Source of the DNA: Vicugna vicugna
Taxonomy: Eukaryota
Length of the DNA stretch: 64,000 nucleotides
NCBI GenBank assembly: GCA_013265495.1
Contig: MU057989.1
Coordinates: 1,565,513-1,629,512, forward strand
Direction of reading: 5' to 3'
How positions within the stretch are numbered: the first letter of the stretch is position 1; each line of letters begins with the position of its first letter. Under the pieces are notes generated by a model that saw only the letters and a program-made list of their open reading frames with translations, ran no database searches and was not told where the DNA came from. The position numbers were made by a program, and so were the translations under genes. This document shows, one piece after another, positions 8,995 through 15,451 of this stretch.

Positions 8995-9297
8995 TGTCAG
9001 CTGCGGGAGGCGGGAGAGGGATCCGAGGAGGTGGGCTGCCCCAACTGAAAGAATGCGCAAGGAGCCGACATGGAGCAAAACAGTGCTTTATTGCACCACA
9101 ATGGGTTGTGCGCGCCTCAGGTGTACACTGGTCCCTACATAATGCCTGCACATGCGTATTGTACATAGTTACCCCATGCTTACTCATGCTTATATAGTAT
9201 CAGCGCATGCGTGTATCTACTTCTTACACCACGCACATGCAAGTTGTTGTGAGCACTGAAGTGGGTCCCATGGCCTACTTACTCAGGACTGCTGACA
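8995..9297 (-). mobile_element. 3' LTR of the ERV-S-like provirus
   Basis: Perfect 7-bp terminal inverted repeat TGTCAGC...GCTGACA; preceded on minus by purine-rich TGGGTAGAA (PPT-like, 9298-9306); contains AATAAA; about 85% identical to the other LTR by hand alignment. Confidence 0.9.
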
Positions 9298-9306
9298 TTC
9301 TACCCA

Positions 9307-10453
9307 CTAGGTCATGGGGACCCCGGTCCACAGAGCAGAGCTCTGTGCCCAGAGACCACAACAACAATATAGGGAACAACATCCTATCACTAGACAGGCA
9401 ACTACGATGGCCAGGACAGCTAGACCCATCTCCAGGAGGAAGTTAGGGATGACCACAGTCGTTAAGGGGGCCTTGAGTTACACGGTCTATGTGATTTAGC
9501 TCCTGATCTATTTCTCGTAGCGCCTCAGCTACTTCCTTCTGATGATCTGGTATGTAAATACAGCATTCAGTATGTAACATAGCGCGTGTGCCGCCTTGGC
9601 TTGCCGTGAGAATGTCCAGCGCCATCCTGTTTTGTAATACCACCTTCCGCATTTGGGTGGTCTCATCTAATAATTCACCTACGGCCTTCCTAGTGATATT
9701 TACTGCAGCTGACAAGTGCTGATCTAGGGCCTCCACCTGCAACTCTACACTGATGGTTCCGGCACCAGGCAGGACTAGTCCCAGGGAATAAAGCCACCAA
9801 GCTGCATGCTTTTCACGGTGCCACCGGGTGTGAAACGGATACCAGTTCACGGGGTGCTCCGTTAAGGTGGGCCGGATGTGCCCGGGCAAGTAAGCTTTAC
9901 CCCAAGTACAGCACCCTGTCTACCTCGCCAGGAGGGAAGACCATCCTGGGTGCCACATGCCCACAGATACCCTGGCAGCAGGAAATTGGTGGATTTCGTG
10001 CCAATCAAACGCCGCCCATCCCACCGTGTGGAGGCATTTACATTGTGAGTGTTGTTGGCACACAGCCCTTTGGGGAGCCACACTACGGTGCGGTTTGGGG
10101 CCTCGAGTTCAAACCGCTGCTCGATACAGAAGGGGCTTACACTTGTTAATTTTATATGAACACTATTCATCCACCCCTACCCATTCCATACTGCCCTTCC
10201 AATTAGGGGGGGTCGTTGCCCCACTCATGAAAGAGCGTATCTTCAGTGGTCCACCGCTGCAAGTCTCAGGGCGATCCTGTTGTCCTGTTGGTATTCCATT
10301 AGGTCAATGCGCTCCAATTAGTTTTGGACACGGGGTGGAGGTGCCACGGCAGTCCATCCCCTGCGTCTATGGAAAGTTCAGTACAGACCCAACAATGAGA
10401 CGTGGACTCGCACAAATGTGTGCGCCCAGGAAAATATGGTATTCCTCGTCACC
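9307..10453 (-). pseudogene. env: Retroviral env pseudogene, gamma-type (SU-TM)
   Basis: N-terminal NTIFSWA, CWVC at 10383-10394, GYLWACG, furin-like REKH at 9806-9817, fusion peptide AAWWLYSLGLVLPGAG, ISD LQNRMALDILTASQGGT at 9587-9637, (R)X6CC to 9560, TM anchor AVLAIVVACLVIGCCSLYCCCGLW, stop at 9307-9309. Several internal stops and frameshifts. Confidence 0.88.
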
Positions 10454-13400
10454 CTGGACGAAAGGATAAAGCAGAGGTGGACACCATAACTGACAAGTCT
10501 CTCCCTTCCAGGAGGATGCAGGCTACTTTACCATCCTGGGAGAGTACAGTGGCAGGAAGGGCTGTCCGCCCTTGGTGCTGGTACCACACCAATCCTCCGG
10601 TACTGGGTTGGTTACACTTTGGAAGTGCTTTGGGGGCTATCAGCAGAATTGCCTAGAGTCGCAGGGCCTCTGCTCCCTTAAGAAGGGACACCCCCGTCCT
10701 TCCTAGGGTGACCTGTACATCAAAAGGCCATTCACAGGTTACCTGCAGGGCTTTCTTTAGCCTGTCACCCCCCGTGGTTCTAAAAGGGCTAACCCGGGCC
10801 TTCAGCCTGAATCTGGCCCTTCCATGTCCATGTGTGCTGCTGCCCCGAGTTTAAGACCCTGGGGGCAGGTGATATTAACATGCACTCTACTATTGATATA
10901 TCGGAGATGTCCTTTACAGGCCCAATCTTGAGCCTCCGAATGGTCCCCGGTAATAACTTATCTAGTGGGCTCATACCTGTATGGCAGGGTTGTTCATTTA
11001 AAAGATGTACCACCTGTGGCAGTACAATGTTCCAGCCTCGTCCTTGTGGTTAAAGGGCCCTTAATTTATCCTATAGTAGGCCGTTGTATCGCTCAATCAT
11101 TCCTGCTGCTTGGGGGGCAGTAAGGCAAACGCAGTGTCCATTTAATATCATTTTCCTTGGCTTATTCCTGGGTCTGTTGGGCAGTAAAGGGGGCCCCCTA
11201 TCACTTTGTATTTCTAAGGGAGTCCTGTAAAGACTTGTGAAAGTTCCAGTGCTGCGATAGGAGAGTCCTGCATAACTCGGGGCACATGGTCAGCGAAACC
11301 CAGGCCAGTAGTGGTGTCTACTGCCGTCAGCAGGTACGGCAAGCCCGTGCTAGGAGAAATGGGCCTATGTAGTCTACTTGCCACACCTGCAATGGCTGGA
11401 CCCCCTGTGCAATCATCCCCGCCTGCTGGGGCCATCGCCGCTGGTCTGGGTGGCGATTAGCACACCATGGGCACGGCTGCACAGCATTCTTGGCTTCAAC
11501 TTGGCTCAACTTGCAGTCCCCGCCGGTCCCCTTCCTGCCTCATTGTGTATGGGCCTACATGGCCAAGTTTCTTATGGAGCCAGGGACCTATGTTGGGTCC
11601 CAGAGACATGGCCTGTACAGAATGAAGATGGGCTAGCACGTCAGTGGCATCGTTGCCTGGTGCCAAGGCTGGGCGGTGCCCCGGCACCTGGTAAATTGTG
11701 TACTGACTTTCTTGGCCTTTGTCCCACAATTCTTTCCACATATGCTGTCTCCATAGAGGTCAGTGCCCAATCATCTAGTCCTGCGTGGCCCATGGGGGCA
11801 GCCATAGTGTGAGGCCTCGGTATACAGCCCAGTTCTCCGTGCAGAGCTGCAAGGGGCTGGATTCATATGTTAACACCATCCATACCGCCAGTAGCTCAGC
11901 CCATTGGCTGGACTGGCCCTCTCGTCTCTCCCACCAGAAGGCTTCGGTGGCAGGGTGCAACGCCATTGCAACCCAAGTGGGCAGACTGTCCTTGCAAGAA
12001 CCATCCATGTACCAAGGGTTCTCCGGGGGTGGTCCCTTTCCTTCGAGGAAGGGACCAGGTGTGGGGTCCACCCCCTGATGTGGGAGCGTCTGCAAAGCAG
12101 GTGCAACAAATCTCACAGGCCCTAACCCCTGCTGCAGCTCTGCAGCCAAGGGGCTGGTGGTGTAGTGGGCTCCCTGTTCTAAGGAAGCACCCCACTTAGT
12201 CAGGGTTGGGGTCTGCCCAGTCGTCAGTTGGGGTTGCTTTGCCCACATATGTATCTATCCTGCAGTGGGATATGTGATTCGTACCATCCAGGGCTCAGTG
12301 GCTACTGAGGATGCATAAGTTGCTGACAATTGTTTCTCAATTAAGAAATAATGATATTCAGCTTGTTTCCATGGCTGAGACCAGGACCCTATGGGCACTT
12401 TTTGTCGCCCATGCTTTTGCCATAAGCCCCAACAATACACATCATCGTCCACATGGACTGTTAGCCAGAAGGGGAAGGCGGGATTGATGGTGCGCAGCGC
12501 CTGCACTTGGGCTACCGCCCTCTTAGTTTCTAAGAATGCATGTTCGGCTTCATCTGTCCAGTCCCAGACTTTTCCCTTCTTAATCAATTTATAGAGGGTT
12601 TAGCTATTTGGGCCAGATGAGGGATAAACACCTGCCAATATCCCAGAAGGCCCAAGTAAGTCTGTAACTGTTTAACCGTGTTGGGGCGGGAATATGCCTG
12701 GATCTTGTCTATCACCACTTCAGGCAGCATTTTGGTCTTACCCGACCAGACAATACCCCAAAACTTGACAGAACATCCAGGTCTTTGCACTTTGTCCTCA
12801 TTCACAGCCCACCCCCAGCCCGCCAGGGCTTCTTGCAGCACTGTGACACTGGTTTCTAAATCTGAAAGAGAGTCAGAGGTTAGCATTATGTCATCTATAT
12901 AATGGAACAAACGAATAGTGTCAGGTTTGCTCCACGTGGCCAGGTCCTAGGCCACCAGGCTGTGGCACAGTGTGGGGCTGCACAGATATCCCTGTGATCT
13001 TACAACAAAAGTCCATTGTCTTCCTTCCCAGGTAAACGCAGACTGTCCCTGGCTCTCAGGGGCTGTGTCTGTAGAGAAGAACGCATTGGCCAGGTCAACC
13101 ACGTAGTGGCAAGTACCCAGTTCATGGGACAGCCGGTCCATCAAATCTGTTATGTTTGTCACAGCTGCATGCATGGGGGTGACTTTGTTCAGTTCTCGAC
13201 AGTCCACTATCATCTTCCAGGAGCTGTCTGGCTTCCACACCGGCCACACTGGAGAGTTACATGCTATGCATTGGCTGAATAATACCGGCTTCCTCAAGTT
13301 TTAAGATAGTCCGTCCTATCTCACCGTGGCCCCCGGCAACTGATATTGCCTGATGTTCACCACTCGAGTGGCCTGTTGCAGAACCAGAAGTGCATGATGG

Positions 13401-13788
13401 GGGTGCCCCCGGGTAAGTGTTTTTACCATGCGAACTCTCAGGCGAAATTCCCCTTGAGTCGTCTGTATCTGCAATCCCTGTGAAATGTCTATGCCCAAAA
13501 TATATTCAGCTATTTGAGGATACATGTACTTCATATGCAGCGGAGGGCAAGCGGCCAATACCTAAAGTCAGAGTCACTTGTCTGGCTCACACTTGCTTGC
13601 CTCCATATCCCTCTGTATCATGGTCCCCTAAAGCAATCTGGATTTCCATACGATAATGTAATGTAGGCTCCTGAATCTACTAATGCCAATATCCGCTACT
13701 TGTTCGTGGGAGACCAGTGGATGGTCAGTTCAACGTGTGGCCTCCGGTTGCTTGGGTTCCCCACGTTCCGAACGCCTCAGCCTCAACC
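10449..13788 (-). pseudogene. pol: Retroviral pro-pol pseudogene (protease, RT, RNase H, integrase)
   Basis: DSG at 13669-13677; [37 protein letters not shown] at 12890-12901; WYMDGS (RNase H); WLHKKLGH...CPWC; WQVDYIGP; LTAVDTTTG; SDRG; MIERYNG; stop TGA at 10449-10451. Confidence 0.92.
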
Positions 13789-15094: not shown

Positions 15095-15142
15095 CCGAGC
15101 GTCCCCGTTAGAGGAAGGGAGAGCAGAAGGGGCACTCACCTG

Positions 15143-15160
15143 ATCCTGCCAACTACTACA
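15143..15160 (-). other. Primer-binding site, tRNA-Ser type
   Basis: Minus strand TGTAGTAGTTGGCAGGAT matches TGGCGTAGTCGGCAGGAT (complement of the tRNA-Ser 3' end) at 15/18 positions, 5 nt after the 5' LTR end. Confidence 0.8.
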
Positions 15161-15165
15161 CGAAG

Positions 15166-15451
15166 TGTCAGCCACAGGAGGCTGGAGAGGGATCCGAAGA
15201 GGTGAGCTGCCCAACTGTAGGAATGCGTGAGGAGCTGACATAATGTGCAAGGAGCTGACATGGAGCAAAACAGTACTTTATTGCAGTACAAGGGATTGTG
15301 TGCACCTCAGGTGTACACTGGTCCTTATATAATGCCCATGCACGCGTATTGTACGTAGTTACCCCATCCTTACAATATCAGCACATGAGTATATTTTCTT
15401 CTTACATCATGCATATGCAAGTTATTGTGAACGCTGACCTAGGTCCCACGG
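15166..15451 (-). mobile_element. 5' LTR of the ERV-S-like provirus, with the first approximately 23-27 nt of U3 missing
   Basis: Homologous to 8995-9274; TATATAA at 15331-15325; AATAAA at 15282-15277; carries an extra 20-nt tandem duplication (about 15222-15261); homology stops at ggtcccacgg. Confidence 0.88.

Follow-up and report, generated by a model that had tools for sequence, protein, structure and literature searches.

A camelid ERV-S provirus family with an envelope gene probably split over three exons, one of them inside reverse transcriptase

A 64,000-nucleotide stretch of the Vicugna vicugna genome (GenBank assembly GCA_013265495.1, contig MU057989.1, positions 1,565,513 to 1,629,512; below, the window) contains an endogenous retrovirus (ERV) at 8995-15451, lying entirely on the minus strand. 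We conclude, with a probability of about 0.8, that it is a fixed, dead provirus of a camelid ERV-S family whose envelope (env) gene is likely ancestral and was likely expressed from a doubly spliced RNA, with a signal peptide supplied by an exon inside the reverse transcriptase (RT) gene. The window copy is an ordinary fossil, and the interest lies in the env layout of its family. An original prediction, made from the letters of the window, is supported on lineage, host and age; its implied mosaic novelty does not hold, and the three-exon env had gone unseen.

A protein search with the natural env frame of a sister copy (L047) returned 7 proteins among 573 candidates. The RefSeq alpaca model XP_015097995.1 (P0025) maps to another sister copy, L041, in three blocks with gaps of 2.0 and 2.3 kb between them. 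Joined at GT-AG sites, the blocks give at best 300 of the model's 304 residues, compared with 92 for the next best join. Exon 1 contains the start codon and ends just behind the primer site. Exon 2 is 120 bases long and lies within RT. Its acceptor follows closely on the YIDD codons, its donor falls in the W-S-G-K codons, and its frame differs from that of the polymerase. Exon 3 begins at an acceptor in the integrase tail and encodes the surface (SU) and transmembrane (TM) subunits. The phases of all three exons fit. The four splice-consensus sites are all present in the window: donor 1 lies directly behind the primer site (15134-15144), exon 2 and its predicted signal peptide occupy 12742-12861, and acceptor 2, a pyrimidine tract and AG in the integrase tail (10454-10475), precedes exon 3 (9307-10453), which has neither a start codon nor a signal peptide of its own. 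The window copy has lost the env start codon, carries one stop in exon 2, and has stops and frame changes in exon 3.

The same sites recur across the family. Donor 1 is found in 25 of 29 mapped copies, acceptor 1 in 31 of 32, donor 2 in 28 of 30 and the AG of acceptor 2 in 23 of 25, and the start codon stands beside the primer site in 27 of 29. When the SU frame is followed upstream from acceptor 2, a stop is reached without any methionine in 23 of 25 copies, and the residues of this open stretch are polar. Among the decayed copies, 16 of 26 retain an open exon 2, compared with 62 of 286 adjacent windows read in that frame, although these neighbours may also suffer frame changes. Within the env N-terminus, hydropathy is highest in the second half of exon 2.

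Env models from three further mammalian groups begin with a related peptide. RefSeq proteins from Equus, Rhinolophus and Choloepus, called "PABLB member 1 Env-like" by annotators after a class I family, share 42-44% env identity with the camelid family, and their N-terminus matches the RT exon. Each is a full-length open frame, 418-433 residues long, whose start falls within the exon-2 peptide (433 in donkey, horse and Przewalski's horse, 418 in Rhinolophus and 426 in the sloth). When the N-terminal 23-26 residues of these horse, bat and sloth models were compared with all six frames of the whole window, each scored best on exon 2 (64, 61 and 46, with shuffle maxima of 46, 43 and 39), and these peptides exceeded all 60 shuffles in 10 of 12 comparisons. 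A second camelid family retains the same RT acceptor and donor in both readable copies (L084 and L086), one with an in-exon methionine like that of the horse protein. Two env-less class III elements from metagenomes both lack the RT acceptor; of these, the bird element L075 retains the donor, its second frame being closed by a stop, and the other has neither the donor nor the hydrophobic frame.

The lineage assignment rests on RT. In a quick tree of 49 rows, from which 26 fetched loci with RT pieces shorter than 150 residues were left out, 25 camelid rows form a clade with support 100. This clade sits inside a 36-row clade (support 98) that also holds an env-less galliform class III element, an armadillo sequence and older camelid families, apart from the rows resembling murine leukaemia virus (MLV) and those bearing a dUTPase; the clustering with class I that would have spoken against an ERV-S origin was thus not seen. 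A PDB search with the element's RT ranks foamy virus RT (3e-27) ahead of MLV (5e-22), while a young class I control element of this genome matches MLV RT at 3e-94. The nearest fetched RT belongs to the galliform class III pol (65% over 222 residues). By hand count, 97 of 135 residues are identical to the printed HERVS Pol; over the same 135 residues the bird element has 93 and a dUTPase-bearing protein 69. No dUTPase match at E<=1 was found in the provirus, and the dUTPase of a control element, L066, was detected. The family is therefore placed in the ERV-S (HERV-S-like, class III) lineage, as predicted from the window. The suggested camelid host is borne out by L041: over 220 residues it is 100% identical to a Vicugna pacos RefSeq protein and 96-97% identical to the Camelus counterparts, so that the genome belongs to a South American camelid or a very near relative.

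On its motifs and closest structures, the envelope reads as gamma-type (class I). The best PDB matches of TM are syncytin-1, an MLV-related env and syncytin-2, in agreement with the type that had been predicted. SU carries CWVC or CWIC in 19 of 22 copies read (CWVC at 10383-10394 in the window), and the CX6CC motif is whole in 14 of 19. The region with this motif and the immunosuppressive domain (ISD) lies at 9560-9637; the motif had been claimed for the window copy, which has the region and lacks its first cysteine. A full R-x-K-R furin site occurs in 3 of 19 copies read, and the site is degenerate in the window copy. By visual comparison, SU and TM are both similar to the HERVS env. In the part of the HERV consensus list that could be read, the ISD word is found a single time, under HERVS. 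Because the resemblance to the HERV-S env runs through SU and TM, the gamma-type env was likely captured long ago and inherited from an ancestor of the lineage, with no camelid event. The implied novelty of a class III body with a gamma-type env falls away, since the pairing is the published normal state of HERV-S (PMC4724089, as far as its accessible text goes).

The family is multi-copy. The best TM matches led to 34 fetched stretches, of which 32 can be aligned with the element (2.4-6.5 kb, roughly 70-85%), and five more loci fall in the clade by RT; these counts are lower bounds, giving at least 32 sister copies. Pairs of long terminal repeats (LTRs) were found in 28 of the 32, with Kimura two-parameter distances (K2P) from 0.025 to 0.153. 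The window copy, at the old end of this range, belongs to a nine-row short-LTR subfamily (support 100), and its end branch is among the longest in the family (0.11, median 0.061).

The direct repeats that had been recognised at the two ends are indeed paired LTRs. The 3' LTR (8995-9297, from the repeat alignment) is longer than originally given, at 303 bases with TG...CA ends, and the 5' LTR (15166-15451) matches only its positions 25-303. The provirus had been called complete and is not, having lost the 5' outer end and the target-site duplication. Sister LTRs hold a 4-base word at the deletion point, and an identical word forms the start of the expected duplication; a short deletion between the two identical words would therefore explain the loss. 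A crude pattern that misses many LTR starts finds a perfect 5-bp duplication in 10 of 26 sisters. Over 265 aligned bases the LTR pair differs at 36 positions (27 transitions; K2P 0.153), close to the 40 or so estimated previously. Eleven of the 36 fall at CpG sites, and the non-CpG difference is 10.5%.

Contigs from three species labels span both host junctions with 0-3 differences (3/3 DNA runs). One unlabelled run yielded four pieces with 27 differences in about 1040 bases. They are far closer to the window copy than any paralogue in the same genome (best 85%) and may represent the same locus in a more distant camelid, but no piece spans a junction. The camel and llama lineages split about 16-17 million years ago. 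The L041 locus, with an LTR K2P of 0.064, is common to Vicugna pacos and Camelus; because the window copy has the higher value (0.153), it should predate that split, in line with the age first proposed. At a rate of 2.2e-9 substitutions per site per year, its age would be about 35 million years, and older under a slower camelid rate.

Several observations weigh against the three-exon reading. The splice joints are read from DNA and from supporting proteins that are all RefSeq predictions. The annotated camelid protein has its start in the LTR, 42 residues upstream, and ends ahead of TM; for these reasons it is itself no working envelope. This TM-less, SU-like frame of 304 residues (L041:3600-8858), annotated in alpaca and 96-97% identical in camels, could be a secreted receptor-blocking protein or a chance survival. 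For horse, bat and sloth the match is between peptides, with the exons of their env genes not visible; on L034, the bat and sloth peptides did not exceed shuffles (2 of 12 comparisons). Donor 2 lies in conserved W-S-G-K codons that the env-less L075 also carries, and may be a by-product of them. Between the two camelid families, third-base identity is higher in the exon (17/22) than outside it (43/81; one-sided p 0.034, one pair), yet the env-less bird control leans the same way (14/25 against 36/93; p 0.093), which leaves this test of double coding weak. Exon 2 is read as a signal peptide from its hydropathy. For the lineage, kinship with HERV-S itself, which is in none of the trees, comes from the hand count against a printed protein. 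These points leave room for conventional env expression, by single splicing and from a start of its own close to the integrase tail, the RT exon then being cryptic splicing in decayed host copies. Such a start has a candidate, a methionine that 12 of 25 copies carry six codons into exon 3, and a precedent in XtERV-S of Xenopus, also class III with a class I env, for which the available text of PMC8278194 gives a 19-residue signal peptide at the env start. We nevertheless consider it improbable. The stretch upstream of SU is polar and in 23 of 25 copies has no methionine, in the annotated protein no hydrophobic leader comes after the inner methionine, env models from four mammalian orders open with one and the same peptide, and the three phases agree.

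Two other explanations concern the origin of the env and the survival of the window copy. The camelid TM rows form a clade of their own (support 99) in a tree that has no named gamma references and whose deeper branches are weakly supported, as would suit a camelid-specific recombinant with a recently captured gamma-type env. That history is very hard to reconcile with an SU, TM and ISD word like those of HERVS, with the RT-derived leader shared by the nearest full-length envs (horse, bat and sloth), or with the same pairing as described in the accessible part of Vargiu 2016 (PMC4724089), and we regard it as extremely unlikely. As for the locus, the sequences at 8780-8994 and 15452-15700 are single-copy, GC-rich host DNA with promoter-like words, split by the insertion. 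We take these words to be ZNF143-, ETS- and YY1-like, and the flanking host exons, named from translated peptides, to be those of ZNF500, SEPTIN12, SMIM22 and ROGDI. A host gene exon at the flanks themselves was rejected, the sequence being single-copy and without a paralogue. The setting, together with the presence of the insertion under three species labels, would allow the copy to have been kept for a host role, for instance as a promoter part between ZNF500 and SEPTIN12. But all of its frames are broken, its end branch is long, the CpG ratio of the flanks has decayed, and fixation alone is no sign of function; a host role is thus very unlikely. With its start codon and every frame lost, the copy is most likely inert.

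Under the preferred three-exon reading, a live virus would have translated Gag from unspliced RNA and, by reading through one stop, Gag-Pol. In a doubly spliced RNA, the start codon next to the primer site would be linked with the 120-base RT exon, and that exon with SU-TM; one DNA stretch would code for both polymerase and env leader, and the hydrophobic exon-2 peptide would act as the env signal peptide. In horse-like elements, the start codon would lie inside the RT exon itself. The layout may have been inherited across the ERV-S lineage. We give roughly even odds to the broader proposition that the whole mammalian lineage, HERV-S included, has a leaderless env with an RT-overprinted signal exon, and that intact envs in equids, horseshoe bats and the sloth have been overlooked, some of them co-opted. 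Such an arrangement suggests a way for a class III retroelement to use a captured envelope, with a leader recruited from its own polymerase gene, and a new coding exon would have arisen in the most conserved retroviral gene. It also predicts a blind spot: screens for syncytin-like genes that seek one long start-to-stop frame (as in PMC4866760, judging from its available text) would truncate or miss ERV-S envelopes. Because these screens cannot see split env genes whole, intact ERV-S envelopes would, if the prediction is true, have been passed over.

The ERV-S-type env models comprise P0022, P0029 and P0030 (Equus), P0023 and P0034 (Rhinolophus) and P0024 (Choloepus). The 433-residue frame is kept in three equids, and from sequence the envs of all three genera are candidate co-opted genes. 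Against a protein atlas, the horse env hit only generic TLV_coat clusters, and scans of viral contigs with RT and with the horse env gave no matches. An armadillo NDFIP2 gene model (P0007) starts with ERV-S-like RT and leaves it, by eye, at the residue of donor 2, which suggests that the same donor splices into a host gene.

The camelid family is of a known kind. HERVS has a class I envelope, lacks a dUTPase and clusters with an avian class III element in the accessible text of Vargiu 2016 (PMC4724089), where every class III env found is class I, one of them from horse. Class III elements published with class I envelopes include HERV-S, HERVL32, HERVL66 and the horse ERV3-1N-EC (PMC4724089), as well as XtERV-S (PMC8278194), again from the parts available. 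HERV-S (HERV18/LTR18) shares with the camelid family a class III pol without dUTPase, a Ser primer, a class I env and the ISD word, and its gag, protease, RT, SU and TM proteins, as far as printed, resemble those of the family. It is nevertheless a separate family, from another host (primates, with LTR18) and about 28% different in RT by hand count. The HERVS env printed in the text available of PMC4724089 starts in what is the integrase tail of the camelid element; the portion seen of supplement 2 of that paper contains neither "splice" nor "signal peptide" as a whole word, and Jern 2005 yielded nothing about the HERV-S env. The galliform class III element (P0002 cluster; chicken, guineafowl and ptarmigan), likely the AviERVIII/GGERVL18 of Vargiu 2016 (PMC4724089), shares the WLLRL gag word and the W-S-G-K codons. 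In contrast to the camelid family, no env could be found in it, its YIDD is not followed by a pyrimidine-rich acceptor, and a stop interrupts the other frame. According to the accessible text of Yedavalli 2021 (PMC8278194), XtERV-S resembles the camelid lineage in its class III gag-pol, its class I env, its tRNA-Ser primer and its in-frame gag-pol stop, and probably also in its 5-bp target duplication; it differs in having a dUTPase, an env that is made by single splicing and includes its own signal peptide, and an extra frame in integrase rather than RT. ERV-L elements (HERV-L and MuERV-L) share the class III RT with YIDD and probably the 5-bp duplication, but carry a dUTPase and as a rule no env, the opposite of the camelid family. 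In avian leukosis virus and snakehead retrovirus, an upstream exon located no later than the start of gag supplies part of the env N-terminus, whereas here the hydrophobic core would come from an exon overprinted on RT.

In the parts available of two related surveys, Ibrahim 2021 (PMC8605555) counts camelid ERVL elements, shows one alpaca ERVL cluster and does not name ERV-S, and Gim 2017 (PMC5682256) names Ser-primed horse elements with no mention of splicing. Among full-text articles, seen in part, which include PMC9967133 (Hogan and Johnson 2023) and PMC4866760 (Stefanetti 2016) and take in few subscription papers, we found no named camelid ERV-S description, as the original prediction had supposed. 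The same literature has no env leader inside RT, with RepBase and Dfam lying beyond its scope and a prior description possible. The camelid family may already stand, unnamed, in the library of Ibrahim 2021 or in RepBase. The gene layout looks real and may be undescribed.

The remaining anatomy of the window copy confirms part of what had been observed. By hand count, 15 of the 18 bases of the primer binding site (15143-15160) agree with the 3' end of a tRNA-Ser(AGA) encoded in this genome, as reported before. Several sister copies keep the Ser site whole, and there is a second Ser-type variant. Gag (13790-15091) is broken and contains WLLRLW; this motif, YIDD in RT, CWVC in SU and the ISD all lie where they had been placed. 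No Cys-His box was seen in the window gag by eye or in any of three sister gag frames scanned, and in the same three of three sisters a single in-frame stop separates gag from pro. Pro-pol (10455-13789), likewise broken, comprises protease, RT, tether, RNase H and integrase; each of gag, pro-pol and env holds stops and frame changes. The Pfam domains RVT_1, RT_RNaseH_2, RNase_H and TLV_coat are recognised in the element. A degenerate polypurine tract (9298-9310) resembles that of the sister copies.

Other ERVs accompany this element in the genome. Six copies of 3.6-4.0 kb (L043, L050, L053, L057, L063 and L064) share internal deletions that remove integrase and SU and keep gag pieces, the RT exon and TM; they are possibly a non-autonomous subfamily. 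A second, older ERV-S-like family (L059, L061, L084, L086 and L087) forms its own TM clade with support 99. A solo LTR with a 4-base target duplication lies in the window at 8270-8699 and is 91-95% like the LTRs of L068. The latter represents a young MLV-like family, with an identical LTR pair, at least 8 loci of equal score, and long open pol and env frames, and is a very recent class I expansion in this genome. L065, L066 and L067 are also young (LTR K2P 0.004-0.016) and D-type-like, with a gamma-type env, a dUTPase in L066, and a primer site that is presumably lysine-type.

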